From contig CAZUFC010000064.1 of the NCBI GenBank assembly GCA_964619725.1, positions 1 through 47,128 of the forward strand: a stretch of DNA of 47,128 nt, read 5' to 3'. Positions 15,751 through 46,914 of the stretch are shown in pieces. Positions within the stretch are counted from its first letter, which is position 1; each line of letters starts with the position of its first letter. The position numbers were made by a program, and so were the translations under genes. A model generated the notes under the pieces. The model was not told the DNA's origin. It did no database searches and saw nothing but the letters and a program-made list of their open reading frames with translations. Source of the stretch: an uncultured bacterium (GTDB lineage Bacteria; CSSED10-310; CAZUFC01).

Positions 15751-16144
15751 TTTAATCTATCTCCTTGATCAGTTTCCATTTCATTAACCCCCTCACAGCA
15801 AAATCCGGAATCATATAGTCTGGGAACTGCTTTTTTACTTTAACGATGCGACCGGGAATCCTACAACCCCCGGATAATATAACAGTCTGTTAATGATTTT
15901 TCAATTACTCGGCCTGGATTCTCTTCCCCACACTCTTGAAAGCCATCAAAGTATAGAAGAATCCACATCTTTTCCGTTTAGAATGACATCATGTTCGGGA
16001 TCACGAAAAAATCTGCAGACGCTTGATAAGATTGGTTTTATAAGTATAATATCAATAACCGGATTTTCCGGAAAAGCGGCTGAACAAGCAGGAAAGCATA
16101 GCGGAGAAACATCAGCAAAATATCGATTAAAGGAGAAATGCGCT

Positions 16145-18937
16145 ATGCGTAAGGCAACCGGGATTCGTTTTCGAAAAACGCCTTTTTTTGTTTTCTACCT
16201 GTTATCTTTGACGTTTAATATTACGGGAGCGTCCGGAACAACCGTTTTAATTAATGAAATACACACCGGATGTCCGGATTGGGTCGAATTGGTTAATGCG
16301 GGAAACCAGCCCATTGATATTTCAGGATGGAGATTGAGGTGTTGGTGGAAAGGGCTGGAAACGTTTCAGATGGAGGAGCAGTATGTATTTCCTGAAGGTT
16401 GCGTTTTGCAACCCGGAGAATTCACCCTGGTGACGGATGAGCCTGTTTTTTGCTGCGATTCCTTTCATTTAAGCGTTTTCACCTGGTCCGACATGGAGGG
16501 CATATGTTGCGTTTTGGAGACTAAAGCAGGCGCCGGCATTGATTCGTTAGTGGTTTCCGGAATGACGGGCACGCCCGCTATCGAGTTGCCTGGAGGCGCT
16601 GAGTTTGATCCTCCATATCCTCAACGATACTATGGAAACGATTTTCATCGAAACGGATGGACGGATACTGATTCGGGAGCGGATTGGAAATGCTGTAATT
16701 TCACATCCCCCTGCGAGCCGAATCCGGGACAATTAGAATACACTCCGGGGCCTGAGCCGGTGCCCGCAGCAGGTAAAGCCGGTATAACCCTCTTGCTTTT
16801 GCTCTTTTCCATTTTCATTATGATAAAAAGCACGCGTCGGGTTTCGATAATAAATTTAATCCTTTTTTCGATTTCTGCAACTGTAGCGCATTCCGTCAAG
16901 GCTGAATTTGCAAGCGATCGCGTCGTTATAGCGATAGCGGACGGGATAAGATTCGAAGATGCCCTGGAATCGGACACTTTCGACGTCATGCCCAATATTA
17001 ACTTTGAATTACGGGAAAAGGGAACTTTTTGCAGATATTTCTACAATAACGGGCTGACCATAACCACTGCAGCCCATATCGCACTCTTGACCGGCGTCTA
17101 TATTCCCAAACCCAACAACAGAATTTCAAGAGACAGCGTTTTTCCTGAATACCCGACTATTTTTGAATATTTTCGGGGGAAGCTGCAGGAGCAGGGAGTA
17201 CCGTTGGAGGAATCCCGGACGCGAGTATGCCAGATATACGGAAAGCAGGTGGAATGCAATAATATGGCTTACAGTCTTCATCCGGCGTACGGACCGGAAT
17301 ACGCCGGGCGCATACGTTTTCCCGGCTGGGAATCAGGAGACACGGGTCCGCATCAGGATACAAGGGCTTACTTGACTGCTTTGGAAGAAATGGACGCGAA
17401 TCATCCTGAGCTGCTGCTGATCAATTTTGCTCAAACAGACCAGCGTGGACATTACGGAGTTCGGCAAAACTATGAATATTCTCTCCGCAAATTCGACGAA
17501 TACGCTCATGCGCTGTGGAAGCGCATACAGACGGACGAGTTTTATAAAAACAGGACGACGATGTTCATTTTAACGGATCACGGCAGGCATGACGATCAGC
17601 ATTCCGGCTTCAGGCATCATGGATGTCCATGCCGGGGTTGCAGGCGCGGATTTTTGCTGGCGATTGGTCCTGATACGCCGGAGGGCGCCGTATCCGATAC
17701 TGTCTATGATTACAGAGACTTGAGCGTCACGATCAGTCAAATGCTTGATTTTGAGGTTCCTTTATCCGAGGGCATGTACATGGATGATATTTTTTATTCT
17801 CGATGCAGACGAAAAAAGGAAAAGGGATATGATCCGGAAAGTTTAAGCAGAACCGAAGGCAGATCAAGGCATCCTCAGTTAACGGTATCGGGCGAAAATG
17901 CAGCCGTTGTCTGGATAGACGATACTCCGGGAGACTGGAAGGTAATGTTGAGCAAATCCTCGGACGGCGGAGAAAACTGGTCGGAAGCCTCGGTTTTGCC
18001 GTTAAACCTGGAAAATCAGAAGGTTCAGTGGGCAGATATCGGTTATTGTTCTGACGGAAGGTTGTTTGCTGCCGTTTCTGCTTACGAATCAGCGTCGCCA
18101 GAATCAGATTTTACTTGCTGGAAGGTACATCTGCTTAACGGGCATACCGGCGAAGTATATTGTTCGAGTGAAACGGGACAGATGGGGACGCCTGCAGAAA
18201 TTTTCACCGATGGCCTGTCGATGCAATGCACCTGGTCGTTCATTCATAACAATACGGAACTTCATCCTCCCTATCACGGCAAAGTGAACGTGTTTTTCAA
18301 GGATGCTCCGGGCATACTCTCCAGGGACAGCACAGCAACTGACGAGATGCTCGATCCTGCCTGCCCCGTCATCGTCAGGGACAGCGCGTTCTGTCATTGC
18401 GCTTTCCAGACTTTTCAAGACAGGTACTGGAATATCGGTTACTGCAGATCGACGGATAACGGCCACACATGGGAACCCTTTTCCCTCATGTTCGAATCAG
18501 TCGTGCCCGTTAACGCACATGCGCCGCAACTCGCCGTCGTCGACGATCATGTAGTCCTGATTTACTACAAGAGAAACCTGGAAGACGATCACGGCAATAT
18601 CGTTTATCACGTCAGCACGAATTACGGCGAAAACTGGGAAGAAACCGGGTTGCTCTCACAGGATGATGATGTTTATTATACGACGATGACAAGCGCAAAC
18701 GGCAAAATTGTCGCCGCCTGGTGCAAATTCGACGGTCAGAATTCTTCCCTATGCGCAAAAACTTCCACTGACGGCGGAATTTCCTGGAGCGAGGAAATTG
18801 TCCTGGAGGACGGCCCCGGCCTGCTCGTCGACCCGGATACAGCGCCGGTGGGCAACGATTTGGCCCTCCTGTGGGCCGATCAATCCGATGACAAATCTGA
18901 AATATATTTTAAAATCATTCCAGGGTTGTTTGAATGA
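16145..18937 (+). CDS. Exported multidomain protein: lamin-tail-like domain, internal IPTL-CTERM-like TM, second hydrophobic segment, alkaline-phosphatase-superfamily domain, BNR/Asp-box propeller
   Basis: VLINEI..DWVELVN..IDISGWRL (LTD); IADGIR, TTAAH, TDQRGH, TDHGRH, HH (AlkP-type metal ligands); Asp-boxes SSDGGENW, STDNGHTW, STNYGENW, STDGGISW; start ATG 16145 after AAGGAG (ORF track starts at 15893). Confidence 0.8.
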   Translation: MRKATGIRFRKTPFFVFYLLSLTFNITGASGTTVLINEIHTGCPDWVELVNAGNQPIDISGWRLRCWWKGLETFQMEEQYVFPEGCVLQPGEFTLVTDEPVFCCDSFHLSVFTWSDMEGICCVLETKAGAGIDSLVVSGMTGTPAIELPGGAEFDPPYPQRYYGNDFHRNGWTDTDSGADWKCCNFTSPCEPNPGQLEYTPGPEPVPAAGKAGITLLLLLFSIFIMIKSTRRVSIINLILFSISATVAHSVKAEFASDRVVIAIADGIRFEDALESDTFDVMPNINFELREKGTFCRYFYNNGLTITTAAHIALLTGVYIPKPNNRISRDSVFPEYPTIFEYFRGKLQEQGVPLEESRTRVCQIYGKQVECNNMAYSLHPAYGPEYAGRIRFPGWESGDTGPHQDTRAYLTALEEMDANHPELLLINFAQTDQRGHYGVRQNYEYSLRKFDEYAHALWKRIQTDEFYKNRTTMFILTDHGRHDDQHSGFRHHGCPCRGCRRGFLLAIGPDTPEGAVSDTVYDYRDLSVTISQMLDFEVPLSEGMYMDDIFYSRCRRKKEKGYDPESLSRTEGRSRHPQLTVSGENAAVVWIDDTPGDWKVMLSKSSDGGENWSEASVLPLNLENQKVQWADIGYCSDGRLFAAVSAYESASPESDFTCWKVHLLNGHTGEVYCSSETGQMGTPAEIFTDGLSMQCTWSFIHNNTELHPPYHGKVNVFFKDAPGILSRDSTATDEMLDPACPVIVRDSAFCHCAFQTFQDRYWNIGYCRSTDNGHTWEPFSLMFESVVPVNAHAPQLAVVDDHVVLIYYKRNLEDDHGNIVYHVSTNYGENWEETGLLSQDDDVYYTTMTSANGKIVAAWCKFDGQNSSLCAKTSTDGGISWSEEIVLEDGPGLLVDPDTAPVGNDLALLWADQSDDKSEIYFKIIPGLFE

Positions 18938-18995: not shown

Positions 18996-20537
18996 ATGAA
19001 AAAAAGTGTGATGACGGTTTTAACGGCAATGATGATCATGTTGACTGGAGTGCATGCGGGGACTATACGGGTACCGGGTGATGAGACGACCATTCAGGCG
19101 GCGCTGGATGCTGCGGTCAACGGCGATACGGTATTGATCGCTGACGGGACTTACACGGGTCCCGAAAACCGGGGACTCGACACACAAGGCAAAGAAGTCT
19201 TCATCACGTCTGAAAACGGCCGTGACTATTGCGTTATTGACTGTGAATCAGCGGATCGAGGATTTCTCCTGGATGACGACGAGACATTGACTTGCCGTAT
19301 TGAGGGCATTACGATTCGCAACGGGTATCGCAGCGGAAACGACGGCTCCGGAGGGGCGATAGAGTGCTACGAGTCTTCACCGAGCATCATCGAGTGTCGA
19401 TTTGAGTTTAATGAAGCTACGAACGGAGCAGCCGTGCGGTGTACGCGGGGCAGCAGCGCGCATATCGAGGGTTGCGAGTTTATTGAAAACGAAGGAACGG
19501 ACGGCGGCGCTGTTCACGTTTCTTCCAATTCTCACCCAACGATCCACGGTTGCATCTTCGAATCAAACTATTGCACCAACGGCGGGGGCATTTATTGCAT
19601 GGAGAATTCATCACCGACAATTTCCAGTTGCATTTTCCAGGAAAATATAGCTACCAACGGCGGCGGCATTGCCTGCGATCATCACTCTTCACCCATCGTG
19701 ATCAACTGCCTGATGGCGAACTGCTCAGCCACCAACGGCGGAGGCGTGTATTGCTCCGATTCCTCGCCATCGCTTATCGCGTGCACCCTGGCCGACAATC
19801 TCGGCACCACGGCAGGCGGGATTTTTTCCTTGAGTTCGAATCCGACGGTGAGCTGTTCTATTATATGGAACGGCGGACGAGACGAGATATCAGGCTCCTG
19901 CCAGGTGACCTATTCTGACGTAAGCGGAGGATGGCCCGGCGCCGGCAACATGGACCAGAATCCTGAGTTCGTACAGGGTCCGGAGACTTCCTACTATCTC
20001 AGTCACATTGCATCCGGGCAGGGTTCGAACAGTCCCTGTATCGATGCCGGGGGAGCTGCTGCGAGTGCGGTCTGCATCACTCTGCCGACAGGCTCCGCAT
20101 GTCTTGATACGCTTTCTACGAGAACTGACGGCGGAGCCGATCAGGGAACGGCTGACCTGGGATATCACCATCCGGCTTCCATTCCGGCTGCGGTATCGCT
20201 GTGGATGCCCGACACCTATTTTACTCCCGGAGAAGATTGCTCCTGCATCGCCACGGTCGAAAACATGACGGACGACACACTGAGCGACCATCCTCTGTTC
20301 GTGATCCTGGATGTTTTCGGCTCCTATTACTTCGGTCCGAGCTTCAGCGATTTCGATTATTACTCCAGAAGTTTCCCGCCCGGCAGTGAAGCCGTCACGG
20401 TCCTTTCTACATTCACGTGGCCGCAGGGAGCCGGCTCAGCCGACGGCCTGATGTGGTACGGAGCGCTGACTAACCGGAATATGACTGCCCTGTTCGGTCT
20501 TTTGGGAACCTGGACCTTCGGTTTCGGAGAGCCCTGA
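18996..20537 (+). CDS. Secreted right-handed parallel beta-helix protein with a ~115-aa C-terminal domain
   Basis: Signal peptide, TIQAALDAA..GDTVLIADGTY cap, repeated NGGGIxC..SSPxIxxC turns, SPCIDAG..DLGYH end, C-terminal MPDTYFTPG..WYGALT..WTFGFG. Confidence 0.85.
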   Translation: MKKSVMTVLTAMMIMLTGVHAGTIRVPGDETTIQAALDAAVNGDTVLIADGTYTGPENRGLDTQGKEVFITSENGRDYCVIDCESADRGFLLDDDETLTCRIEGITIRNGYRSGNDGSGGAIECYESSPSIIECRFEFNEATNGAAVRCTRGSSAHIEGCEFIENEGTDGGAVHVSSNSHPTIHGCIFESNYCTNGGGIYCMENSSPTISSCIFQENIATNGGGIACDHHSSPIVINCLMANCSATNGGGVYCSDSSPSLIACTLADNLGTTAGGIFSLSSNPTVSCSIIWNGGRDEISGSCQVTYSDVSGGWPGAGNMDQNPEFVQGPETSYYLSHIASGQGSNSPCIDAGGAAASAVCITLPTGSACLDTLSTRTDGGADQGTADLGYHHPASIPAAVSLWMPDTYFTPGEDCSCIATVENMTDDTLSDHPLFVILDVFGSYYFGPSFSDFDYYSRSFPPGSEAVTVLSTFTWPQGAGSADGLMWYGALTNRNMTALFGLLGTWTFGFGEP

Positions 20538-21697: not shown

Positions 21698-23920
21698 TTA
21701 AAACCTGTTGCTGCTGTAAGAAGCTTTTTTTAAGAATATGAATATTCCGCTGATGACGGCTGTAAGAGTGAGTAAACCGAAAGGAGATGAAGTCGGTATG
21801 GGGAATAAAGGCGTAATGACGGGTGAAGGCGTGGCGGTACCTCCAGGCGTTAGGACCGGAGTGGGTGTTGCCGGCGTATAGCCGACCTGATTGAAGTGAT
21901 AACCCATATCTGCCGTTCCGGAATCGGTTACGGCATCCGTTCTCGTGGTCAGATCGGACAGGCAGACAGTTCCGAAATAAGTGGAAAAACAAATATCATC
22001 AGCATCTTGATTGCCGGCATCTACGCACGGACTGTCAAAAGCCTGACCTGCAGCCGTCTGACTCAGACAGTAATTGCCCGCTGCTCCTGATACGAACAGA
22101 GGATCAACATCTATATTGCCTTCTCCGGGGAATCCGCCCTGAATATTGGAATATTCTACAGTCGCAGCAAGCGAAGAATCATAGAATTCATCGGGATAAT
22201 CGTTCCAGAAAATGCAGTTTGCAAACTGGGAAGCCGCATTGTAATTCCTGATCGCGCCGCCGCCGACCGCTTGTGTGGAATTCTCGGTAAAAGTGCAATT
22301 CACAAGCACAGGAGCGGATGTATTATAACAGTATCCTCCAGCGCCGCCTGCGTATCCGGATTGATTGTTTACGAAAAGGCAATTGATGAAAGCCGGCGAG
22401 GAATAATTATAGACGAAGAATCCGCCTCCTCCGAGGCTGGCGACGTTGGATTTAAAAACGCAGTTGGCAATTACCGGCGAGGATGCATTCAGAACCATGG
22501 CGCCTCCGTAAGAGGCCGAATTACCGGTAAAAATACAATTATGTATGCTGGGAGATGAGTTACTTAAAAAAATGCCGCTTCCATACGCTGAAGAACCGTG
22601 TCTGAAAGTAAATCCGCTTACATAGGAATCTGAGGATTCTGAATGGGTGAAGTTTATAGCGTTTCCGCTGTTTTCACAGTCGATTATACATTCATACGGA
22701 CCGTTTTCGGAAATGAGTTTTATGGCTTTTCCGTAAAATTGCAGATTCTTGTTTCCGTTTCCCTTGTAGATGCCGGATGCGACCAAAATCGTGTCATTGT
22801 CCACTGAAGCGTTTATGGCGCTTTGAATGTTGGGATAATCCGTGGGCACGCCTATGGTTCGTCCGCCTCTGGCATAATGGAATCCCATGTCGACCTGTCC
22901 CGAATCTTCGGATTGGTCCGTCGAGGTCGTCATTTCATTCAGGCACAGATTCCCATATCCGTCAAAAAAGCATATGTTTTCGGACAGGTCGCTTCCCGCA
23001 TCGATACAGGGACTCTCCTCGGTATGTCCTGTAGATGTTCGGCTTAAATAAAAATGACCGTCTTCCCCGGTTACGAAAAGAGGGTCCTGGTTGATGTTGC
23101 CAGTTCCGGCGAATCCCCCTTGAATGTCCGAATAGCTGACATCAGGAGAGCCGGCATCTTCAAATATCTCGTCAGGCGTGTCGTTCCAGATAATACAGTC
23201 GGTTATGACGGGAAAACACAAATAACCGCAGTAAATGCCTCCGCCGCCGTATCCGCCGTCATTGCCGGTTATGGTGCAGTTTTTTATTACCGGAGAGGAC
23301 TCCTGGTCGCAATGAATCCCTCCGCCGTCAAAAAATGCAGAATTTCCCGTAATCGTGCAGTTGGTGATATCAGCATCAGAGTAACTGTCGAAACCGATTC
23401 CTCCGCCTCGATACGCGTTGTTGTTTTCAATCAAACAATCGTTTATTTTCGGCAGTGAATAATTACATTCGATCCCACCGCCGTTCCACGTCGCTCCATT
23501 GTTTTTTATTATGCAGCCTATGATCTGAGGATAACAAAATTCACAAAATATTCCACCGCCATAATTCGCCTGCCCGTTGACGATAGTCACTCCGCTTAAA
23601 ATTGAGCCGTCGTCTTCTCCGCTCTGAAAATGGAATCCCCTGTCTCCGCCTTCGCAATCAATGACGCAGGTCTCAGGTCCATAAAGCGAAGTCACGAGGA
23701 TTGATTTTCCTGAAAAATCGATTCCCCTGTTGCCCGACCCCGTATAAGTTCCCGCAAGTATTAAAACTGTATCGCCGTTCCCGGCAGCATCTATGCCGTC
23801 CTGGATGGTCGGATAATTGTCAGGCACGATCAACGTCGCGCCTTGAACCGTTAAAGGAAAAAAAAGGCATAGAATAAATGCCGCCTTCAGCAACCGGTTT
23901 ATTTTTGATTTTTTTTTCAT
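21698..23920 (-). CDS. Secreted tandem (2x) beta-helix protein with Pro/Thr linker and IPTL-CTERM-like anchor
   Basis: Signal peptide; two units each starting VP.xYPxIQ and ending SPC(I/V)DAG..DMG(F/Y)H; tail IPTSSPFG + TM + KK; start ATG 23920 after GGGGG (ORF track starts at 23962). Confidence 0.85.
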   Translation of the reverse strand: MKKKSKINRLLKAAFILCLFFPLTVQGATLIVPDNYPTIQDGIDAAGNGDTVLILAGTYTGSGNRGIDFSGKSILVTSLYGPETCVIDCEGGDRGFHFQSGEDDGSILSGVTIVNGQANYGGGIFCEFCYPQIIGCIIKNNGATWNGGGIECNYSLPKINDCLIENNNAYRGGGIGFDSYSDADITNCTITGNSAFFDGGGIHCDQESSPVIKNCTITGNDGGYGGGGIYCGYLCFPVITDCIIWNDTPDEIFEDAGSPDVSYSDIQGGFAGTGNINQDPLFVTGEDGHFYLSRTSTGHTEESPCIDAGSDLSENICFFDGYGNLCLNEMTTSTDQSEDSGQVDMGFHYARGGRTIGVPTDYPNIQSAINASVDNDTILVASGIYKGNGNKNLQFYGKAIKLISENGPYECIIDCENSGNAINFTHSESSDSYVSGFTFRHGSSAYGSGIFLSNSSPSIHNCIFTGNSASYGGAMVLNASSPVIANCVFKSNVASLGGGGFFVYNYSSPAFINCLFVNNQSGYAGGAGGYCYNTSAPVLVNCTFTENSTQAVGGGAIRNYNAASQFANCIFWNDYPDEFYDSSLAATVEYSNIQGGFPGEGNIDVDPLFVSGAAGNYCLSQTAAGQAFDSPCVDAGNQDADDICFSTYFGTVCLSDLTTRTDAVTDSGTADMGYHFNQVGYTPATPTPVLTPGGTATPSPVITPLFPIPTSSPFGLLTLTAVISGIFIFLKKASYSSNRF

Positions 23921-23959
23921 TTTTCCCCCGTTCGCAAAATCAACCCTTTTACAACTTTT

Positions 23960-23988
23960 CATATACTAATCCCCGAACCTATTGTCAA
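23960..23988 (-). promoter_or_regulatory. Putative promoter for the 23920 gene
   Basis: Minus strand TTGACA, 17 bp, TATATG; overlaps the upstream ATG 23962, supporting the 23920 start. Confidence 0.4.
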
Positions 23989-24913: not shown

Positions 24914-25744
24914 TCAAGTAACTCCTTTTAATCGCTGGCAGTTCGGACAGATGAAATGAGATGTTGAACCTGTTTTTATTTTTTCAACTGCTGTGCCGCA
25001 ATTCGGGCATTTTTTTCCTTCCTTGTAACCGACTCCCAATCTGTCCATATTGTACCCGCCTCGAGTGCCGAAAAAATCCTGTTCGAATGAGAGTCCTCCC
25101 GCATCGATGCTTTCCTGAAGAACATCCTGTATAGCATGGAAAAGTTCTGTTTTTTGTCGTTTGCTGAGAGCGGGGATTGGCGTTTTGGGATGCAGTCCGA
25201 CTCTGAAAAGTATTTCCTGTATGTAGACATTTCCTATGCCGGCGATATTTTTCTGGTTCATCAGAAACGGTTTAACGGCTCCCCTTCTCCCTTCCAGCAT
25301 GCGCAAGAATTTTTCCTCAGTCAACTCGCTGTCCAACGCATGAGGACCCAGGGCGGATAATTCTTTATGCCGGTACAAATGCGTTGCTTTTACCAGGTGT
25401 ATTTTACCGAACCACCAGAAATGAATGGTGTATCCGCTTCCGTCGTGGAACCGCATCAGGAATTGATATTTTCCCGAAGGATTTTGCCCGGAAGCAAGAT
25501 AGAACATTTCAGCGCCCATGCCCAGATTAGTCAGGAGAAGAGCGTCATCGTTCAGGGGAGTAATAAGCCATTTGCCCTTGGGATAAGTTTTGCCGAGTGT
25601 TCGATGAATCGTTTTTCGTTTAAATTCGGGAACAGAAATATTGAGATTTTTAGGTTGCCGGGCGACGATATTTTTTATTTTTTTTCCTTGTACCGTTTGG
25701 GATAATTGACGAGCCAAAACGGTTATTTCAGGCAATTCAGGCAT
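24914..25744 (-). CDS. Fpg/Nei family DNA glycosylase, atypical
   Basis: N-terminal PELPE, KGKW, H2TH LMNQKNIAGIGNVY, zinc finger CPNC..CPNCQ. Confidence 0.9.
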   Translation of the reverse strand: MPELPEITVLARQLSQTVQGKKIKNIVARQPKNLNISVPEFKRKTIHRTLGKTYPKGKWLITPLNDDALLLTNLGMGAEMFYLASGQNPSGKYQFLMRFHDGSGYTIHFWWFGKIHLVKATHLYRHKELSALGPHALDSELTEEKFLRMLEGRRGAVKPFLMNQKNIAGIGNVYIQEILFRVGLHPKTPIPALSKRQKTELFHAIQDVLQESIDAGGLSFEQDFFGTRGGYNMDRLGVGYKEGKKCPNCGTAVEKIKTGSTSHFICPNCQRLKGVT

Positions 25745-25763: not shown

Positions 25764-27521
25764 TCACGCTCCTTTCCTGTATAGTTTTGTGGAACCGATA
25801 AGCATAGCGAAACCGAGAATAAGAATAAAGCTTCCAAGCCTGTTAAGAGCGGGGATAGGAGGCGGAGTGACGACGATAGTTGGAGTAGCGGTATAGTAAG
25901 GCGTTTGAGTGCTTGTCGGGGTTATGGTTGGAGTGTCTGTCGGAATTTCGGTCACGTAACTGGTGGGTGTTCGAGTAGGCGTAATGGTTGTTGTGGGCGA
26001 CAATGTGGGAGTTGCGCTGGAAGTCGGAGTGCCGGTTATAGTTGGGGTGAACGTAGGCAGCGGCGATTCTGTCGGTGAGAGCGTAGCTGTGAGCGTCGGC
26101 GAAAGAGTGGCTGTAGGAGAGGGCGTAGCGGTCGGAAGCGGGGTGGCGCAATTAAAGGTGAAGTAGCCGTTTTGAATTTCCCAGCCGCTCACGTCGTCAC
26201 GAAGATGAGAAAAATAGAGCAAACTCTGCTCTCCATTTTCACAGTCCGCGCATACCACATCAAAGTTTAAACCGACCAGGGTCCCGTTGCTGCCCGCAGG
26301 GATAAATTCAGGATAGGAGTAACCGGTAATTCGTATTTCACCGTTTGTCGGTTCGTTGCACCCGAACATCACCCAGCTCGGATCGAGTTCTCCGGCATCG
26401 CAGGAAAGATAATCGAGCATTTCCGGGTCATAGTTCACATAGAACACGAAAGCATCCACGTCCGTATCGGGATTCGCCATAGTCACGTCAATGGTCACGG
26501 CATCCCCTGTGCACCCTGATACATCGGCTATTTCAAGATGATCGTTTCCGACAGGAGTGGGTATCTGCGTGGGAACAGGAGTGGGACAGACATAAGTAAA
26601 TATGCCGTTATCGATTTCCCAGCCTTCCAGATCGTCCTGAAGCAGGCTGAAGGAAAGGTGACATTGATCATTATTCTGACAGGAAGCGCAATTGACTCGG
26701 AACCTAAGAACGGCCAGACTGCCTTCGCTGCCGGACGGTATAACCTCTGGATGAGAAAAACCGGTGACTATGACCGTTCCCGAAGTCGGTTCATTGCATC
26801 CGAACATGACCCATCCGGGGTCGAGTTCGCCTTCAAAACAATCGACGAATTCGAGCATATCCGGACAATAATTCAAGTGGAAAACGAACGCGTCTACAGG
26901 AGTATCCGGATTGGATATAAGGACCTCCACGTCGACGACATCCTCGTTGCATCCTGAAAAATCCTGCAACTGAATAATATCGCTGCTTACAGGCGTAGGA
27001 ATGACCGTGGGCGTCGGCGCTTCGCAGTAATACGTGAACACGCCGAACTCCGTATCCCAGCCGGAGATATCGTCCTGAAGATTAGTGAAATAAAGCATGC
27101 TCTGATCGCCGTTTTCGCAATTTTCGCATTTGACTGTAAAGCTGATCTGCATCAGCGAACCCTCGCTTCCCGCCGGAATACTTTCCGGATAAGAAAAACC
27201 GGTTGCCCTTATTTCACCCGGCGTCGGTTCATTGCAGCCGAAAAGCACCCAGCCGGGATTTAAAGAACCCTCCGAACATTCATTGAATTCAAGTTTTTCC
27301 GTATCGTAATGCAGGGTAAAACCGAAAGCATCAACGGTAGTATCAGGATTGGATATGTTCACATTGGTCACTACCGTATCTTGATTACAGCCGGTAAAGT
27401 TTTCCAGTGCAATCTTATCTCCCTTGTTCGCCGCATCCGTCGTTCCTGATGGGACAACCGTTCCGGCAATCAACAGAACAATCAGAAAAAGCGACGGGAA
27501 TGACGGGTAAATTTTTTTCAT
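25764..27521 (-). CDS. Three-cohesin mini-scaffoldin with Thr/Pro stalk and IPTL-CTERM-like anchor
   Basis: Signal peptide; three ~132-aa repeats (V.ISNPDT.VDAF.F.L.YD.E.L..G.L..W..FGCNEPT.G.I..TGFS.P..IP.GS.G.L..L.F.V); ~100-aa TPT-rich region; IPALNRLG + TM + KLYRK. Confidence 0.85.
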   Translation of the reverse strand: MKKIYPSFPSLFLIVLLIAGTVVPSGTTDAANKGDKIALENFTGCNQDTVVTNVNISNPDTTVDAFGFTLHYDTEKLEFNECSEGSLNPGWVLFGCNEPTPGEIRATGFSYPESIPAGSEGSLMQISFTVKCENCENGDQSMLYFTNLQDDISGWDTEFGVFTYYCEAPTPTVIPTPVSSDIIQLQDFSGCNEDVVDVEVLISNPDTPVDAFVFHLNYCPDMLEFVDCFEGELDPGWVMFGCNEPTSGTVIVTGFSHPEVIPSGSEGSLAVLRFRVNCASCQNNDQCHLSFSLLQDDLEGWEIDNGIFTYVCPTPVPTQIPTPVGNDHLEIADVSGCTGDAVTIDVTMANPDTDVDAFVFYVNYDPEMLDYLSCDAGELDPSWVMFGCNEPTNGEIRITGYSYPEFIPAGSNGTLVGLNFDVVCADCENGEQSLLYFSHLRDDVSGWEIQNGYFTFNCATPLPTATPSPTATLSPTLTATLSPTESPLPTFTPTITGTPTSSATPTLSPTTTITPTRTPTSYVTEIPTDTPTITPTSTQTPYYTATPTIVVTPPPIPALNRLGSFILILGFAMLIGSTKLYRKGA

Positions 27522-27583
27522 TTTTAACCTCTCTCGCTGTTGATGATTAACGTTAGCGTCACGTAACTTTTCCAGATGTTCAT

Positions 27584-30500
27584 TTAGTCCAGCAGTCCGT
27601 AACCCGTCGTTGTCTCTTTTAAATAATGCTCCCTCGATTGGAACCGCAGCTCATCGCCGTTTTTTTGAAACCGCAGGTCGCAGAAGGTAAAGCGACCGGC
27701 GCCCGCAGTGAATTCCGTCAAATCGTCCTTCAGATCAAAAAGACTGAGAGCGCTTTGTTCGCCAATTCTGCAGTCCGCTGAGAGGACTTTGAATTTGAGC
27801 AGCGCCAGGGTACGATTTTCACCGGCGGGAATATAGTCCGGATAGGCAAAACCAGCAAATTTAAGATAACCAGGCTCCAATTCATTGCACCCGAACATGA
27901 TCCATTGCAAATCCTGTTCGACTACTTCCCAATCGGTCAACTCAAGCATTTCAGAATCGAACTCAAGCGAGAATCCCAGGGCATCGATTTCCGTATTCGC
28001 GTTTCTGATCATAATTTCAACGGTAATTTCCTCATTGACGCAACCTGCGGCATCATTCACCCAAATGACGTCGGCTGCTTGATCAAGACTCTTTTCAGTA
28101 ACTGCATCGAGCGGCATGCCGTAGGGCTCGATTGATTCCGAATCGACTTCCGCATGCGGCGCATCTATTTTCGAATAGCGACCGAAAAGTTTTTCGTCGG
28201 CCTGATCGCCTGTGAACATTCCCTTGGCAATAGCGTCTGCGCATTCGCAATCTTCTCCCAGGATGAAAATATGCATGCACTGGGCATCTCCGATAGTCAC
28301 CTGTCCGTCACCCATGCAATCCGCCGAGCACCATTCTTCGTAGGAGGGCGAATAGGCGCCCAGAACGATCATATATGTCATCTGGCAGTCTTCACTGGTG
28401 ATTTCTCCATCATTGTTGACGTCGCCGTCGTTAATGCACGGTTCAGGCGTAAACGTCGGTTCAGGCGTCGGAACCATGGTCGGGGGTTCGGTCGGCATTG
28501 GAGTGAATGTTGGCATCATAGTCGGCGTCAACGTCGGGACGGGAGTCGGAGAATAATCGGTCCAGTCCAGGTAATAGACGTCTTCGCTTACTCGCTCCGC
28601 CCCTATATTGCTGTTGCCGGTATCCACACAATCATCCAGTCCGAATTGCGTGTCGAGGGGACCGTCTTCTTTTCCCCAGAAATTATACGATGCGTCGATG
28701 CAGGTTGAAGTCGTCGCATTGTAAACGGCATAACTGATGTGATCGCTGAAATAGTTCGTGTTGGAAGCAGAACCGCCGATAAGAGGTTGAGCGCTTGACG
28801 TAATATAAATGCCGTATCCGCTTCCTGCAGCATTATTCGAGTGTATGTTGCAATTAACGATCTCAGGCATCGAAGTGGACCCGACAGCATAAATTCCGTA
28901 GCCGCTATTATAACGAATTACCGCTCCGTCTATCAGGGAATGGTTCATCGCAGCGGAGGCTTCCTGGATGTAAATCCCGTAAGAAGGATTATTTTCTATT
29001 ACTCCGCCGTTTATGCTGACGGTTCCGGGTTCGGCGTAAACGCCGGAACTCGTGTTATCGTGAATCCAGCAGTCTGTCAATGTCGGACGTGCATTGTTGG
29101 TGTAAGCCCTGACGCCGTTGCCGGCGCCGTAGCTGATTTCACAATTCGAAAGAACCGGCGAACTTTCGTAACATTGCACGTTTTCATACGCGGCGCCGGC
29201 GCCTCCATACTCAATTACGCAATGCTGCAACGATGTGATGGCATCGTCGGAATGAGCGGCGAAGTAAATTCCGTGCCAGTCGCCCGGAGCCGGATTAGGC
29301 ATATCGGACGTGAATATTACAGGTTCCGAAGCCGTGCCTTCAGCGACAAGGGCTCCCGGATAGTTCGCGTTGGAATCGTGACCGATCCAGAGGTAAATGC
29401 TGTTGATCATTAATTCCGCACCCGGTTCGATCGTCCAGGTCGTAACCTGATCAGCTCCGTCTTTACCCTGAACAAATACATGCGCTGCTGAATGAATATA
29501 ATACGGAATTCCCTGATCGACCCACACGCTGTCTTTCGTTATGGTGTCGCCGTATACGTAGAACTGCTGATAATCGTTGTCGACGTAGGCGCAGCCTGTG
29601 ACGCCGTGTGTTTGCGAAGCGTACATCCTGACGGGATAATTTGAATTTTCTGAGAATGTGCAGCCGTTCACCGTCGCAGAATCGTATCCGCCGTTGCAGT
29701 ACAACCCCCAGTTGTTGCCCGTTACCGTCGAATCCTGGAGAGTTACATGTGAAGAATTGTTCACATATATGCCGTAGCTTTCGTTATCATGGATCATGCA
29801 ATTGATGAGAGAGGGATCGGCATTCGTATTGGCGTATAATCCATAGCTCGTTGAATTGCCGATATAGCAGTTTTCCAGGACAGGAGCAGCATTGGAGTGT
29901 GCATACACGCCGTATCCTGAATTATAATTGAAAATGCAATGGCGGAAAACAGGCGATGAATCATAGCAATAGATGTTTTCATAGCCGCTGTAACCGCCGT
30001 ATAGAACATTGCAGTATTCCATCAGGCATGATGCATCATCGGAATATCTTGAGAAATAAATTCCATCCCAATAACCGGGAGAAGCCGACCCGCGCGGTCC
30101 AAAAATAATACGTGCTGAGTCGGTTCCAAGCGCCTGTAATCCTCCGGTCAGCGTGCTGTTGCTGTCGTGACCGATGTACAATCCCCTCTGAGTATTGAAA
30201 TGCAGTTCTGAGCCGGCTTCAATCGTCAGTACGGTTATGTCCTCTTCTCCGTCCTGACCCTGAACGTAAACGTCGCCTTCTATATAATAGGGTTCGTTCA
30301 TTTCCCAGTAACTGTCATAGACGATGGTGTCTCCCCTGACGTTTATGAATTCATAAAGGTTATCCGCGTAAGAGCAATCCGATATATTCCTGACGTTGCC
30401 TGCATAAATGTGAATCGGATAAGCGTTATTCTCGGTGAATGAGCAGTTCGTTATAAGCGGCACGTCTGCAGCGCCGTTGCAATAGAGCCCATAGCTCTGA

Positions 30501-33500
30501 TTCAAAGAAATCGTTGAATCGCTTATCGTCAGCTCCGTTCCGTTATACAGATAGATGCCGTAGGAGGTGTTGTCATGGATGTTTGAAAATGTGATCTGAG
30601 GATTCGAGCCGTTGCGGCTGTAAACTCCTATGCCGCTCGCATAGCCTATCTCACAATTGTCTATTACGGGATTCGAGGCGTTATGGGCATAAACGCAGGC
30701 GCCGTTAGAATACAGTATCCGGGAATGGCGTATCGTCGGTGAACTGGCCGTGCAATAAATTCCCTCAAAACTGCTGTAACCGCCGTAGAGCAGATCGCAA
30801 TATTCCAGCAAACAAATCGAATCGTCGGCATAATCATAGAAATATATGCCGTCCCAATACCCAACGCTTTCGACATCGCCTGTAAAAATGATGTTTTCTC
30901 CGGATGTTCCCTGGGCTAAAAGCGCACCGGGATAATTCACATCATTGCTGCCGATAAAAAATCCTGTTGCGGAATTGAACTCAAGTTCCGTCCCTTCCTC
31001 AATTTCCAGAGTCGTTACTGTGTCATCTCCGTCTGTTCCCTGGACCGTTACGTCGCCCGCAATGTAATAAGGCTTAAGTTGATCATACCAGAAGGAGTCC
31101 AGACTCACGGTGTCTCCGACTACATAAATCCGGTCAAGTCCTCCGTTATAGACGTAGGAATTCAGAGGCAAACCTATTTTCCATACGTTTCGGGCATATA
31201 CGTAAATCGGATTGTTGATGTTGCCGACGAAAGAATTCCCGGTTATGTAAGGAGCCGTCGTCGCATTGTTGCAGTAAATGCCATAACCGCCGTTCCCGCC
31301 GATAATGTTGTCCGTTATCATGGTTTCGCAATCGCCGGACAGATAAATTCCCGCATATCCGCCCCCGCTGTCGGAAATGATGCTGTCGCTGATGCTACCG
31401 TTACAATTGGAAAAAACTATGTTGTACCAGCCGCTTTCCACAATCGTGCAGCCCTCGATCACTGGAGATGCGTAAGTCGCATAGAATCCCGTGTAAGCGG
31501 AATAACGGATGGTACAATTGTAAAGCTGAGGACTCGAATAATTGCAATGCACCGGGTAATGATAAGCATTTGAGAAATACTGTCCGCCGTACTCAATGGT
31601 CGTCCAGTCTAATTGACATAAAGCATCCTCAGCATAAACCGCAAAATAAATGTCTCCCCATGATCCGGGACTCGGAGAAACAGATGTGGAAGTTATTAAT
31701 ACGGGATTACTTTCTGTCCCTTCACAGAGAAAACCGCCGGGATAACTCGCATTCGAATCGTGACCGATATAAATTCTGGCCGTACTCGGCAGCTTGATCG
31801 TCGTTCCCTCCTGCAACGTTAAAGTCGTCACGCTGTCCGCACCGGACTCGCCTCTCACCGTGATGCCGCCTGACATGTAATAAGCGGTATCCTGGCCTTC
31901 CCAGACAGCATCCTTAGATATGGTCTGCGAAACGACATAAATGTCCTTGTCCAGAGCATTTCCCGTTATGTCGGGACAGAATGTCGCATAGATGTAAATC
32001 GTATAATCCGCAATGTTGTTCGTGATCGTGTTGTCCGAAATGACCGGGCCTGTTCCGGCATCGTCGCAGTATATCCCGTAGCCGGCATTTGAATCGATCA
32101 GACAATCGCTGATCGCAGGGTCAGACTCGTTGCCGTTCAAATAAATCCCGTGACTACCGTTGTTTAAAATATCGCAGGCCGTAATCGTCGGACTGCTTTC
32201 ATTCGCGTATATTCCATACGAAGTGCAATCGCTGATTTCGCAATTCAGGATGCCGGGCGATGAATAATAACAGTAAATTCCATAACTGTAGGCGTTCGTG
32301 ATGATTGAATCTTCAATTATTGGATTCGCATAATTGCAATATACTGACCGAATATCGTAACCGCCGTTTTCCAGGATGCAATATTTCAGATGACAGGTAA
32401 AATCATCGCTGAAATTGGAAAAATAAATGCCGTCCCAGTATCCTGAGCCGACTCGCCTGAATATGATTTCTTCATCTGCAGCGCCGATTGCGCTGATTGA
32501 ACCGGGCTGATTGGGATCGGAATCATGCCCGACGGTTATGCCCAGAGTTCCCGTAAATTCAACTATTGTCCCGGGCTCAATCGTTACTTTGGTTAAGAAA
32601 TCAGGCCCGTGCTGCCCCCGGATGTAGACTTCACCCGTAATCCGGTAAGGAATATCATAATTTTCCCATATAGCATCCTCGGCCACCGTCGCGCCCAAAC
32701 ACTCTATGTAAGAATTCCCATTTCCAGAAAAGGAATTGCCCGACGTATATCCGATACGATTAGAGCCCAGGCGCAGAGGGACACTCGTGTTGTCGTTGAA
32801 AGTCGAGTCCGCTATGGAAATCATACAGGTATTAGCGGAGCAGTATATGCCGTAGCCGTTGTTCCCGGAAAAATCTCCGGAACTGATCGAGAGCGTGCCC
32901 GTGGTATCCGCATATATGCCGTAGGACGAATTGTCGAAACTGGATGAGTAACTCAGGGTAGGACTGGATGTGTTCTGGCTCCTGATTCCATAAGATGAGC
33001 AATCATGAATCTGCACGTAATCGAGAACCGGCGCGCTGTCCCCCAGTATCCTAATTCCGTAATTGCTGCTTTCCCTCAATTCGCAATGACTGAATTCAAC
33101 GTCTGATGACTCCAGGTAAATCATCGTAGAATAGTTGCCGCCGCCATATTCGATCGTCGTATGTTCTAGTACGCTCGCATCCGAATACTGCCTGAAATAA
33201 ATGTTGTACCAATAGCCGCGGGTATGCTCCGTCTGATTCGAAGTGATTAAAACTGGATTCGCTTCGATTCCCTGACAGACTAGCGTTCCCGGACTTGTCG
33301 TCGTCCCGATGTACATCGCACGATTCTGATTGAACCGTATCTCAACTCCCTCGCCGATCGTCAATGTCGCCCCATCATACACCGTGATGTCACCCGTCAC
33401 GATGTATATCCCGTCCGTCGCCGGACTGGTCTCACCTAAAAACGTATCCACGGTTATGTTCCCGGAAATGTTTACCCACGCTCCAACTTCAATGCTCAGC

Positions 33501-33550
33501 ACCAGCGAAATTATCGCTGAAATTAATAAACTTCTCCCCACTTTTTTCAT
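27584..33550 (-). CDS. Giant secreted beta-helix repeat protein (6 units) with Pro/Thr linker, dockerin and C-terminal cohesin
   Basis: Signal peptide; six ~260-aa units (TLTIE.G..F..IG..PG.L.A.GT..GYWDGIYF..EYGG); DASYNFWG cap; dockerin DGDVNNDGEITSED..ADCMGDGQVTIGDA (~28235-28438); cohesin (~27680-28075); SD GGAGG. Confidence 0.88.
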   Translation of the reverse strand: MKKVGRSLLISAIISLVLSIEVGAWVNISGNITVDTFLGETSPATDGIYIVTGDITVYDGATLTIGEGVEIRFNQNRAMYIGTTTSPGTLVCQGIEANPVLITSNQTEHTRGYWYNIYFRQYSDASVLEHTTIEYGGGNYSTMIYLESSDVEFSHCELRESSNYGIRILGDSAPVLDYVQIHDCSSYGIRSQNTSSPTLSYSSSFDNSSYGIYADTTGTLSISSGDFSGNNGYGIYCSANTCMISIADSTFNDNTSVPLRLGSNRIGYTSGNSFSGNGNSYIECLGATVAEDAIWENYDIPYRITGEVYIRGQHGPDFLTKVTIEPGTIVEFTGTLGITVGHDSDPNQPGSISAIGAADEEIIFRRVGSGYWDGIYFSNFSDDFTCHLKYCILENGGYDIRSVYCNYANPIIEDSIITNAYSYGIYCYYSSPGILNCEISDCTSYGIYANESSPTITACDILNNGSHGIYLNGNESDPAISDCLIDSNAGYGIYCDDAGTGPVISDNTITNNIADYTIYIYATFCPDITGNALDKDIYVVSQTISKDAVWEGQDTAYYMSGGITVRGESGADSVTTLTLQEGTTIKLPSTARIYIGHDSNASYPGGFLCEGTESNPVLITSTSVSPSPGSWGDIYFAVYAEDALCQLDWTTIEYGGQYFSNAYHYPVHCNYSSPQLYNCTIRYSAYTGFYATYASPVIEGCTIVESGWYNIVFSNCNGSISDSIISDSGGGYAGIYLSGDCETMITDNIIGGNGGYGIYCNNATTAPYITGNSFVGNINNPIYVYARNVWKIGLPLNSYVYNGGLDRIYVVGDTVSLDSFWYDQLKPYYIAGDVTVQGTDGDDTVTTLEIEEGTELEFNSATGFFIGSNDVNYPGALLAQGTSGENIIFTGDVESVGYWDGIYFYDYADDSICLLEYCDLLYGGYSSFEGIYCTASSPTIRHSRILYSNGACVYAHNASNPVIDNCEIGYASGIGVYSRNGSNPQITFSNIHDNTSYGIYLYNGTELTISDSTISLNQSYGLYCNGAADVPLITNCSFTENNAYPIHIYAGNVRNISDCSYADNLYEFINVRGDTIVYDSYWEMNEPYYIEGDVYVQGQDGEEDITVLTIEAGSELHFNTQRGLYIGHDSNSTLTGGLQALGTDSARIIFGPRGSASPGYWDGIYFSRYSDDASCLMEYCNVLYGGYSGYENIYCYDSSPVFRHCIFNYNSGYGVYAHSNAAPVLENCYIGNSTSYGLYANTNADPSLINCMIHDNESYGIYVNNSSHVTLQDSTVTGNNWGLYCNGGYDSATVNGCTFSENSNYPVRMYASQTHGVTGCAYVDNDYQQFYVYGDTITKDSVWVDQGIPYYIHSAAHVFVQGKDGADQVTTWTIEPGAELMINSIYLWIGHDSNANYPGALVAEGTASEPVIFTSDMPNPAPGDWHGIYFAAHSDDAITSLQHCVIEYGGAGAAYENVQCYESSPVLSNCEISYGAGNGVRAYTNNARPTLTDCWIHDNTSSGVYAEPGTVSINGGVIENNPSYGIYIQEASAAMNHSLIDGAVIRYNSGYGIYAVGSTSMPEIVNCNIHSNNAAGSGYGIYITSSAQPLIGGSASNTNYFSDHISYAVYNATTSTCIDASYNFWGKEDGPLDTQFGLDDCVDTGNSNIGAERVSEDVYYLDWTDYSPTPVPTLTPTMMPTFTPMPTEPPTMVPTPEPTFTPEPCINDGDVNNDGEITSEDCQMTYMIVLGAYSPSYEEWCSADCMGDGQVTIGDAQCMHIFILGEDCECADAIAKGMFTGDQADEKLFGRYSKIDAPHAEVDSESIEPYGMPLDAVTEKSLDQAADVIWVNDAAGCVNEEITVEIMIRNANTEIDALGFSLEFDSEMLELTDWEVVEQDLQWIMFGCNELEPGYLKFAGFAYPDYIPAGENRTLALLKFKVLSADCRIGEQSALSLFDLKDDLTEFTAGAGRFTFCDLRFQKNGDELRFQSREHYLKETTTGYGLLD

Positions 33551-33774: not shown

Positions 33775-33804
33775 ATTTTATTGAAAAAATAATGCAAAAG
33801 TCAA
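33775..33804 (-). promoter_or_regulatory. Putative promoter of the dockerin/scaffoldin operon
   Basis: Minus strand TTGACT, 18 bp, TAAAAT, about 225 nt upstream of ATG 33550. Confidence 0.4.
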
Positions 33805-34065: not shown

Positions 34066-35187
34066 ATGGCGGATCAGGCGAGTACTTTATTGGAGCTGGC
34101 GAAGGTCCGTGCGGATAATCGTGAGGTATTAAACGCGATAGCAGGTGTTCAGGGGACGGCCCTGGGATTGAAAAATTATGATCCAGCGACGGACCTGCCG
34201 TCGGGTGATCCTTGCATTATCGTATATGTACCGCACAAGATACATGAGAAATTTTTATCAGAGGCGATGACCATCCCGGAGCGTCTGACGAGCAGAGACG
34301 GGCTACTGGAAGCGCTGACGGACGTAGTTGTAACCACAGTTCCCGATACTGCGGAAGAAGCGCCTGAATTGAGCGAAGAAAATAAAGCGCTTATCGGAAC
34401 GCTTCAGTGGATGGACGGCAAGATGGACTATATCGGTCCCGGCGTTCAGATAGGAGCGGCTGAAGTTGGAAGCGAATCGCTGGAGACATATGTCGGTACG
34501 GTGGGTTATATCGTTCGTTCCAAAACAGACCCTGAGCTGATCGGCTTCCTCACAAACCAGCATGTAGGACTTCATGCCGGACATTCTCTTTATATTCCGG
34601 GATTCAGGCAGAATGCACTTCGTATCGGCGTAACCCGGGTCGTTCTGGAGCATAAACCGGACGATGAATGGATTACGGGAATCGACGAAAAATTCGCATA
34701 TGTTCGTACGGATTCAGCATTTGTCGTTGTTGAAGAAAACATCGTACCTCACCTGAAAAATGAAATATTGAACGTAGGCCCCATAGGCGAGGTTTACGCA
34801 CCGGATTTGAATTCCATGGAGATCATAGGGAAGCCGGTGAAAAAAATCGGAAGAACCACAGGATTGCAATACGGCGTAATCACGGCATTCGGATACGGCA
34901 TACCGGGCAGCGACGAAATGATCGACAGATACATAAACAAGGAACCGGCCAATTTCTATACCGACTTTCTTATCGCCCCCCGAACGCCCAGTCGGATATT
35001 CAGCACGCACGGCGATTCCGGTTCCCCCATTCTGCTCGATACGAACGACGCTGACGCTGACAGACCTTTGGCTCTCCTCTGGGGCGGATGGCCTGCGGAC
35101 ATAGGCAGGAACAAGGGAGTCGAAGATTTAACCTACGGCATAAACCTAAACAGGATCCTGAACGAATTGAATCTGGAATTTCTCTAG
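34066..35187 (+). CDS. NAL1-like trypsin-fold serine protease, no signal peptide
   Basis: Triad motifs GFLTNQH, VRTDSAF, HGDSGSP; KIGRTTGL; LLWGG; SD AAGGAGG. Confidence 0.88.
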   Translation: MADQASTLLELAKVRADNREVLNAIAGVQGTALGLKNYDPATDLPSGDPCIIVYVPHKIHEKFLSEAMTIPERLTSRDGLLEALTDVVVTTVPDTAEEAPELSEENKALIGTLQWMDGKMDYIGPGVQIGAAEVGSESLETYVGTVGYIVRSKTDPELIGFLTNQHVGLHAGHSLYIPGFRQNALRIGVTRVVLEHKPDDEWITGIDEKFAYVRTDSAFVVVEENIVPHLKNEILNVGPIGEVYAPDLNSMEIIGKPVKKIGRTTGLQYGVITAFGYGIPGSDEMIDRYINKEPANFYTDFLIAPRTPSRIFSTHGDSGSPILLDTNDADADRPLALLWGGWPADIGRNKGVEDLTYGINLNRILNELNLEFL

Positions 35188-46791: not shown

Positions 46792-46914
46792 TTTTTCCCG
46801 GCGACGACTCCTTACCACCTTCAACATTTTACTTATTCCATGAAATACAGTCAATTTTTATCATGCATATTCGACTGATATTCGCGCTTTTGAGCACGCT
46901 TTTGTGAATTTTTT

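Follow-up and report, generated by a model that had tools for sequence, protein, structure and literature searches.

A tailed three-cohesin scaffoldin and a dockerin-bearing beta-helix giant: a candidate non-cellulosomal surface system in the uncultured lineage CSSED10-310

Cohesin-dockerin systems beyond the cellulosome

The role of cohesins and dockerins beyond cellulosomes is an open question (PMC5244752, PMC9012536). We describe a pair of adjacent genes on a 47,128-nucleotide stretch of DNA from an uncultured bacterium of the lineage CSSED10-310 (contig CAZUFC010000064.1 of assembly GCA_964619725.1; hereafter the window), one encoding a scaffoldin with three cohesins and the other a giant beta-helix passenger that bears a dockerin and, at its end, a cohesin of its own. 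In this pair, the plug-and-socket parts of the cellulosome seem to have been put to another use, that of attaching non-enzymatic rods to the cell surface. The genome to which the window belongs, as contig C64, comprises 9.17 Mb in 344 contigs, with a completeness of 90.9% and a contamination of 6.5%; its other contigs are likewise given C-numbers (C5, C8, C134, and so on).

Among the closest described systems, the sortase-anchored scaffoldins (Ruminococcus flavefaciens ScaE, Ruminococcus bromii Sca2/Amy4) resemble ours in the capture of dockerin proteins by a cohesin protein that ends in a sorting tail, in the presence of peptidases among the dockerin cargo, and in Amy4 of the amylosome, which joins on one protein a cohesin and a dockerin that recognize each other (PMC4611034). 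They differ in their monoderm host, sortase, LPXTG-type anchor, and GH13 cargo (PMC4611034), whereas the present host is a predicted diderm in which no sortase was found, the tail is of the exosortase type, the rods do not look catalytic, the modules are rich in Cys, and a two-gene cassette occurs 11 times. The planctosome of Nemodlikiaceae, a hypothetical model, also concerns a diderm with no cellulases and with an anchoring cohesin protein; it includes an adaptor with dockerin and cohesin on one chain and peptidase cargo comparable to that of our system's relatives, but its proposed anchor is a lamin-tail protein with one cohesin, and the available text describes neither beta-helix rods nor a sorting tail (PMC6461901). 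The genome-inferred system of "Candidatus Stygibacter" (Cloacimonadota) shares a multi-cohesin scaffoldin with a C-terminal attachment domain in an uncultured phylum, and dockerins on C25 and S8 peptidases like those of the related loci L023 and L026; it relies, however, on a single 3,755-aa scaffoldin with CBM2/CBM3 and on GH18/GH57 cargo (PMC8542988), whereas our genome has many short scaffoldins free of carbohydrate-binding modules (CBMs), each paired with its own passenger gene.

Two further cases are close in other respects. Cag_2037/Cag_2038 of the diderm Chlorobium chlorochromatii are adjacent cohesin and dockerin genes for giant extended proteins, which are co-expressed and whose interaction was modelled, but there a single cohesin sits on the RTX/lyase protein, secretion is of type I, the stalks are Ig repeats, and there is one locus only and no multi-cohesin tailed scaffoldin (bioRxiv 10.64898/2026.03.19.712371). 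Anaerobic methanotrophic (ANME) archaea encode scaffoldin-like proteins with up to five cohesins and no cellulases, and their S4 Data list proteins of about 190 to 200 aa that combine a cohesin with a PGF-CTERM archaeosortase signal (KEMCBELL_01630, EMICMLNO_00322), an anchor served by the same enzyme family; they differ in their archaeal single-membrane envelope, in the one cohesin on each of the two tailed proteins checked, and in their named cargo of ABC binding proteins and S-layer domains, while the text section on them leaves the anchor undiscussed (PMC9012536). Since these four cases (planctosome, "Ca. Stygibacter," Chlorobium, and ANME) are already in print, non-cellulosomal assemblies of diderms and archaea are published and the term "undescribed system," used in an initial annotation of the window made from its sequence, was overstated. 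Peer et al. (2009) are said to describe, possibly, tailed non-cellulosomal cohesins. Our literature search, which did not reach two key reviews and covered supplements only for PMC9012536, found no account of a CSSED10-310 system or of a bacterial multi-cohesin scaffoldin with an exosortase-type tail. The accessible part of PMC8248873, which predicts CSSED10-310 to be Gram-negative and heterotrophic, does not mention cohesin or dockerin domains.

With regard to the clostridial cellulosome, the type I cohesins (6kgc, 5nrm, 2vn6) share their fold with the cohesin modelled here (Z 16-17, root-mean-square deviation [rmsd] ∼2, 18-19% identity) and the dockerins share the two-loop, three-helix architecture, but our genome shows no CBM3 primary scaffoldin, no GH48/GH9, and no SLH, and recognition position 10 holds Ile, Pro, or Ala and not Ser. 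The system is not a cellulosome, as no cellulase, CBM, SLH, or sortase feature was found; it works like an anchoring scaffoldin system and falls outside IPTL-CTERM/XrtH by curated cut-offs.

The gene pair, its repetition, and the tail family

The two open reading frames (ORFs) are co-oriented and separated by 62 bp, as had been noted initially (Table 1). The Pfam Cohesin model (PF00963) covers three stretches of the 585-aa protein with 98 bits against a cut-off of 24.1, and a profile of the genome's own cohesins placed the three repeats at 27024-27419, 26586-26981, and 26148-26546, in line with the coordinates originally proposed. With a profile built from 32 scaffoldin cohesins, the top-ranking PDB entries were cohesins (E down to 1.6e-5), and homology to the terminal cohesin of the passenger, which was modelled, suggests that the scaffoldin repeats adopt the same fold (37% mean identity). 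A CBM_11 match inside cohesin 1 is sub-threshold (19.9 versus 27 in Pfam). The long Thr/Pro stalk is borne out by its composition, and it is presumably O-glycosylated. Both proteins probably begin with a signal peptide, as judged by eye. Of 5143 length-matched candidates searched with the scaffoldin protein, only 14 proved to be relatives, and the same genome supplied three of these.

Table 1. Coordinates of the gene pair and its features in the window
Feature	Position	Strand	Remarks
Giant passenger gene, 1988 aa	27584..33550	-	signal peptide, six beta-helix units, Pro/Thr linker, dockerin, linker, cohesin
Probable Sec signal peptide of passenger (aa 1-24)	33479..33550	-	by-eye sequence reading
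Six tandem beta-helix units, ∼262 aa each	28571..33472	-	Tyr 9.2%, Lys 0.6%, pI 4.06
Pro/Thr linker (aa 1664-1703)	28442..28561	-	Pro 33%, Thr 30%
Dockerin, two calcium-loop/helix repeats	28235..28444	-	six Cys conserved in local family
Low-confidence linker between dockerin and terminal cohesin, 53 aa	28076..28234	-	from model
Fourth, terminal cohesin, on passenger (aa 1826-1958)	27677..28075	-	same clade as the neighbouring scaffoldin's cohesins
Scaffoldin gene, 585 aa	25764..27521	-	signal peptide, three cohesins, Thr/Pro stalk, sorting-type tail
Scaffoldin cohesin 1	27024..27422	-	profile of the genome's own cohesins
Scaffoldin cohesin 2	26586..26984	-	profile of the genome's own cohesins
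Scaffoldin cohesin 3	26148..26546	-	Pfam and profile of the genome's own cohesins
Thr/Pro stalk, 97 aa (aa 460-556)	25854..26144	-	37% Thr, 23% Pro
Tripartite tail	25767..25856	-	Ile-Pro-Ala motif, Gly, hydrophobic helix, basic end; ∼200-member family in genome
Sigma-70-like site, 10/12 matches	33775..33804	-	225 nt upstream of passenger start; weak

The passenger has the architecture that was first read from it, with six beta-helix units and a linker. The units, delimited by motif and alignment, are marked by W-x-x-I-Y-F at aa 112, 370, 629, 897, 1159, and 1423, at a spacing of about 262 aa; they are 25-46% identical in pairs, and the whole protein scores 382 bits on Pfam Beta_helix. A model of two units is all-beta and confident (predicted local distance difference test [pLDDT] 88.3, predicted template modelling score [pTM] 0.84). 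The two-EF-hand dockerin that follows also holds: Dockerin_1 (PF00404) passes marginally on the whole protein (23.0 bits versus a cut-off of 22.9) and reaches 29.1 bits (E 1.1e-5) in the genome scan, calcium positions 1, 3, 5, 9, and 12 read D,N,D,T,D in loop 1 and D,M,D,T,D in loop 2 (position 3 being atypical), and the model places helices at 17-28, 35-41, and 51-61 and superposes on the solved dockerin 8x39 (Z 10.6, rmsd 1.7 over 66 residues). A further cohesin, overlooked in the initial annotation, lies downstream of the dockerin. It scores 144 bits on the local profile, and its model shows the type I cohesin fold (Foldseek E 3e-12; VIA Z 16.9 and rmsd 2.0 over 130 residues to 6kgc). The C-terminal end of the passenger carries no membrane tail, with less than 5 bits on the profile described below.

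The pair is repeated across the genome: with local profiles we counted 25 ORFs with a dockerin and, distributed over 32 ORFs, 54 cohesin domains. Downstream of the dockerin, at a distance of 21-53 aa, 20 of the 25 also bear a cohesin. Twelve intact ORFs contain cohesins only, one to five each; a tail-less dockerin gene immediately precedes 11 of these, and only the one on C5 stands by itself. Conversely, none of the five dockerin ORFs that possess a tail of their own (C7, C19, C34, and two on C182) is followed by a scaffoldin. Of the nine other tail-less dockerin ORFs, that on C8 is followed first by another dockerin gene and only then by a scaffoldin. Pfam scans of 12 other dockerin proteins of the genome identified eight beta-helices, one laminin-G-like, and one PLD-like protein. 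We also observed a dockerin-cohesin gene interrupted by stops (C12:40015-40775, minus strand), two near-identical contigs, C276 and C277, which are possibly strain variants, and an ORF of 12,092 codons with dockerin, cohesin, and tail at its end (C34:1691-37966, plus strand); further tailed giants measure 8482, 6399, 6140, and 5416 aa.

The tail of the scaffoldin belongs to a large family. It scores 18.2 bits on a profile of 134 tails built without it, a profile that replaced an earlier regular-expression census (152 ORFs) in which the scaffoldin of the window had been missed. At least 12 bits are reached by 233 of 10551 ORF ends, at least 18 bits by 197, and 12 bits by none of 5258 internal controls; the tails of 11 of the 12 scaffoldins reach at least 12 bits. 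An Ile/Val-Pro motif with Gly at position 8 is found in 100 of the 134 tails, Ile/Val-Pro itself having been a search criterion, and no Pfam family reached its cut-off on the tails tested. In the window, a further beta-helix protein (21698-23962, minus strand) terminates directly in the same tail. Two proteins carry such a tail mid-sequence, one on C155 and the other at 15893-18937 (plus strand) of the window; the latter is a lamin-tail, phosphodiesterase, and BNR protein in which the internal tail, at aa ∼280-340, precedes a signal-like segment and matches "midcut-by-XrtH" weakly over the same residues (E 0.19).

A single exosortase-family gene is present in the genome, on C134 (65.7 on TIGR04178, cut-off 23; 78.2 on the archaeosortase B model, cut-off 150), and the family occurs in 14 of 14 phylum genomes. 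Its Cys, Arg, and His stand at the expected motifs and are conserved in two aligned sequences. Exosortases are described with a Cys/Arg/His triad (10.1101/2023.06.07.544157). Based on this co-occurrence, we infer that the tails are most likely processed by the C134 exosortase. At L001:837-1481 (minus strand), a 214-aa membrane protein without an NCBIfam match overlaps the end of the exosortase gene and is a possible partner subunit. No sortase and no SLH domain was found in genome scans in which the controls were positive. Six Omp85 and seven secretin matches back the initial suggestion of a diderm host. The absence of an evident glycoside hydrolase likewise stands, in that none of the families occurs on the 13 of 25 dockerin proteins scanned (12 others and that of the window) and that GH9, with a positive control, is absent from the scan of this 90.9% complete genome; GH48 had no match in the genome either, with a silent control.

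Proposed mode of display and competing explanations

Based on these results, we propose, with a probability that we put at roughly 0.55, that the locus serves to display rods of an adhesive or structural kind, bound in a calcium-dependent manner to anchored scaffoldins, the rod's own cohesin being a cap or a branch point. The proposal starts from the observed domain identities, folds, gene pairing, tail family, and exosortase and extends them to export, cleavage, binding, and function. Both proteins, given their N-terminal signal-like segments, would be exported by Sec. The tail of the scaffoldin would act as a sorting signal common to about 200 proteins, whose processing by the exosortase would lead to anchoring in the envelope, and the stalk would raise the three cohesins off the surface. 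The tail-less rod would then dock through calcium-dependent binding of its dockerin to the scaffoldin cohesins, a step suggested by the fold and by established cohesin-dockerin chemistry, and one scaffoldin could hold as many as three rods. The rod's terminal cohesin, which still looks able to bind a dockerin, might cap the dockerin of the same rod until displaced by a scaffoldin cohesin or, alternatively, take a second rod and thereby give a branched assembly. Tail-sorted MYXO-CTERM proteins are exported by type II secretion (PMC11980579), and by analogy we assume this route for the tailed proteins.

If true, this proposal would extend scaffoldin anchoring to the bacterial exosortase route and provide new, possibly orthogonal Cys-rich pairs for designer scaffolds. 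The locus offers small, adjacent, and testable pairs in a diderm, with 11 cassettes and sequence classes that predict partners, and whether the built-in second cohesin is a cap, a branch point, or a relic can be decided by ordinary binding assays.

The sequence classes, an indirect indication that the modules still bind, concern the recognition sites of the dockerin, which are positions 10, 11, 17, 18, and 22 (PMC6780208, PMC8063739). In 39 dockerins, position 10 agrees between the two halves in 77% of cases, versus 29% for mismatched halves, and position 20 in 67% versus 30%, while position 11 gives no signal (18% versus 16%). Both halves fall in the same position-10 class in 38 of 45 dockerins, and the classes (Pro, Ile/Val/Met, and Ala) follow the tree, the separation persisting when position 10 is masked (FastTree). 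The pattern rests on about two evolutionary switches and could be mimicked by gene conversion between the halves. In a quick tree, the scaffoldin and terminal cohesins of the window form one clade with those of C20, C97, C5, and C276/277 (17 rows, SH-aLRT 100), which is mirrored by a dockerin clade (FastTree); shared duplication explains this mirroring as well as binding does.

Several points weigh against the proposal. Six tail-less dockerin ORFs (on C18, C25, C101, C116, C276, and C277) have no scaffoldin directly downstream, and neither has the broken gene on C12, while that on C265 stops at the contig edge. The dockerin of the window is partly asymmetric, with Ser/Glu versus Ile/Gly at positions 10/11 and Met at calcium position 3 of loop 2, and a bound cis partner, as the model would have it, could out-compete the scaffoldin. 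We dropped a Mantel correlation between dockerin and neighbouring scaffoldin histories (r 0.81) as evidence of binding because whole-cassette duplication alone predicts such likeness. As to the anchor, the likeness of the tail to IPTL-CTERM, on which the initial annotation relied, stands in its tripartite structure and family, but membership does not: TIGR04174 matched neither the scaffoldin nor any of 14 isolated tails (a whole-genome scan with zero matches was uninformative, its control being silent). IPTL-CTERM and XrtH are reportedly described as a pair by Haft et al. (2012). Similarly, the exosortase foreseen by the annotation exists, but with 76.6 on TIGR04177 it stays below the exosortase H cut-off of 86 (a relative's enzyme scores 79.9), and five rhomboid proteases of the genome are alternative processors of the tails.

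It is also conceivable, though we regard it as tentative, that rods are joined in trans, the dockerin of one to the terminal cohesin of the next, so that scaffoldins only nucleate chains and the self-anchored dockerin-cohesin giants cross-link a coat or matrix; this polymer or mesh is partly compatible with display on scaffoldins. The regular succession of dockerin and cohesin in 20 of 25 ORFs and the five proteins that combine dockerin, cohesin, and tail fit such a mesh. Furthermore, among seven diverged terminal cohesins (one near-duplicate dropped), the inferred 8-3-6-5 binding face has kept a mean pairwise identity of 0.52 versus 0.08 for the back face, a comparison whose positions were picked after viewing the alignment, which counts against it. 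For comparison, R. bromii Amy4 recognizes dockerins of the type that it carries itself, and multimerization has been proposed for it (PMC4611034). On the other hand, a linker of 21-53 aa also permits closure in cis, which the model favours, and many of the relatives' dockerin proteins stop at the dockerin, with no cohesin after it.

That the rods are polysaccharide lyases, epimerases, or hydrolases, forming an enzyme complex for algal or microbial polymers, seems doubtful to us. The folds nearest to the units are indeed those of PL6 alginate lyases, AlgE epimerases, GH55, GH87, and tailspikes, the invariant residues (Gly, aromatic, Pro, Asn, Ile, and one Asp) are accompanied by Asp at two adjacent columns in five of the six units, and relatives carry true enzymes, namely peptidases, on the same dockerin. 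However, the beta-helices matched in the PDB are of a generic kind, with a TM-score by query of no more than 0.34 and an identity of no more than 12%, the Atlas neighbours of the unit are only unnamed generic beta-helix or NosD clusters, and the unit, present six times here, runs 20-30 profile matches deep in other proteins. Moreover, an alignment of the six units contains no Lys, Arg, or His common to five of them, and the second half of "adhesin- or lyase-like rods," as the initial annotation put it, is weak for this reason. The unit of the window also builds dockerin-free, directly tailed giants of 8482 and 6140 aa, and therefore the dockerin occupies the place of a tail. A rod that is repetitive, acidic, and aromatic-rich and that has two alternative routes of attachment fits adhesion or coat building better than catalysis, and an adhesive or structural role is most likely.

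A closed unit, in which the dockerin would sit permanently on the rod's own cohesin and act as a folding cap or, once the linker is cut, as a tether that can be released, and in which the scaffoldin would catch other or only cleaved dockerins, appears rather improbable. AlphaFold gave a pTM of 0.78 for the dockerin-linker-cohesin fragment, the linker being disordered and most of each domain exceeding pLDDT 90; because the ceilings for this fragment are about 0.52 with one domain alone and about 0.79 with both together, the dockerin appears fixed against the passenger's own cohesin in the model. In the three pairs of the window's clade, moreover, each terminal cohesin resembles the scaffoldin next to it more than any other (0.37-0.44), and several linkers are Lys/Arg-rich. 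Nevertheless, AlphaFold may pair and orient the domains by likeness to solved complexes, and permanent closure gives no account of the scaffoldins that lie behind dockerin genes in 11 of 12 cases. Finally, we consider it very improbable that the tail is a plain, uncleaved inner-membrane anchor of a periplasmic complex such as an envelope spacer, for although no curated sorting model matches any of the 14 tails and an exit through the outer membrane is putative, tailed proteins of up to 12,092 aa are too large for the periplasm, the Ile/Val-Pro motif with its Gly (a search criterion in part, as said) suits a recognized signal, and so do the two proteins with an internal tail.

Relatives and neighbouring genes

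Among named records, four of the ten loci with the best dockerin matches are titled candidate division CSSED10-310 (L023, L024, L025, and L027). Of 13 phylum relatives, 9 have strong dockerin matches (E <1e-26), and it is these 9 that also have cohesin matches, an indirect sign that the modules still bind; six genomes of one family contain 22-70 dockerin matches each, and outside the phylum a weak dockerin match was found in 1 of 27 genomes. The locus L022 has the same pair, with a 2005-aa beta-helix protein bearing dockerin and cohesin followed by a three-cohesin scaffoldin, which there terminates in a dockerin. Other scaffoldins of relatives end in the tail (L034, L035, L048, L066, P0002, and P0011) or in an unnamed domain of about 120 aa (L024, L036, L037, P0004, P0009, and P0010). 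As for the cargo, dockerins of L023, L024, and L026 are attached to C25 (gingipain-like), M14, S8, and C13 peptidases, which suggests that these loci may encode peptidase assemblies. Because the scaffoldins vary in their end module and the cargo varies between rods and peptidases, both anchor and cargo are exchangeable around a conserved cohesin-dockerin core; if our proposal is true, two lineages use one kit, the one for structural rods and the other for peptidases. In our own genome, none of the 26 C25 peptidases has a dockerin and, by eye, most of them end in the tail or the unnamed domain. Outside the phylum, the same gene order is seen in L030:1-2793 (plus strand) of "Candidatus Hydrogenedentales," where a related dockerin gene precedes a cohesin-BACON gene with a membrane tail.

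The unnamed domain occurs on 220 ORFs of the genome, 212 of its 221 copies lying at most 15 aa from the end, and none of the 220 ORFs carries a cohesin, a dockerin, or the tail. It is present in 10 of 13 phylum relatives and in none of 27 other genomes, and no Pfam, NCBIfam, PDB, or Atlas match of weight was found. A likeness to cohesins was not detectable (hhalign probability 0.6%). In the window, it stands at 20166-20534 (plus strand), at the end of the ORF 18996-20537. A broader and speculative view, to which we give rather low credence, would see in the dockerin-linker-cohesin end a latch that caps itself and opens when the dockerin changes over to a scaffoldin of the matching class. The latch would be part of a lineage-wide modular surface address code, with three interchangeable C-terminal modules (the exosortase-type tail, the unnamed domain, and the dockerin) and several cohesin-dockerin classes that do not cross-react, which would yield ordered giant-rod coats here and peptidase assemblies in relatives.

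The surroundings of the pair are varied. The sigma-70-like site upstream of the passenger is weak because such sites are no commoner in the window than in shuffles (13 versus 18.5), and the terminator scan was likewise at chance. Between 35347 and 42880, three adjoining genes encode large membrane proteins, two of which match GT-C/PMT-type glycosyltransferase models and the third of which has an ILEI domain; they are candidates for the glycosylation of the Thr/Pro stalk. Two genes for Fpg/Nei-type DNA glycosylases (24914-25744 and 43019-43807, both on the minus strand) are present, and the first, which begins 19 bp past the stop of the scaffoldin, is not counted as part of the system. The protein encoded at 34066-35187 (plus strand), whose transcription points away from the cassette, matches both domains of plant NARROW LEAF 1 (PF25608, PF25819). 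A 531-aa ORF without a Pfam match (45259-46854, minus strand) closes with a Gly-Gly-x-His-Cys motif, an ending that we take to be reminiscent of amidinotransferase/deiminase enzymes.

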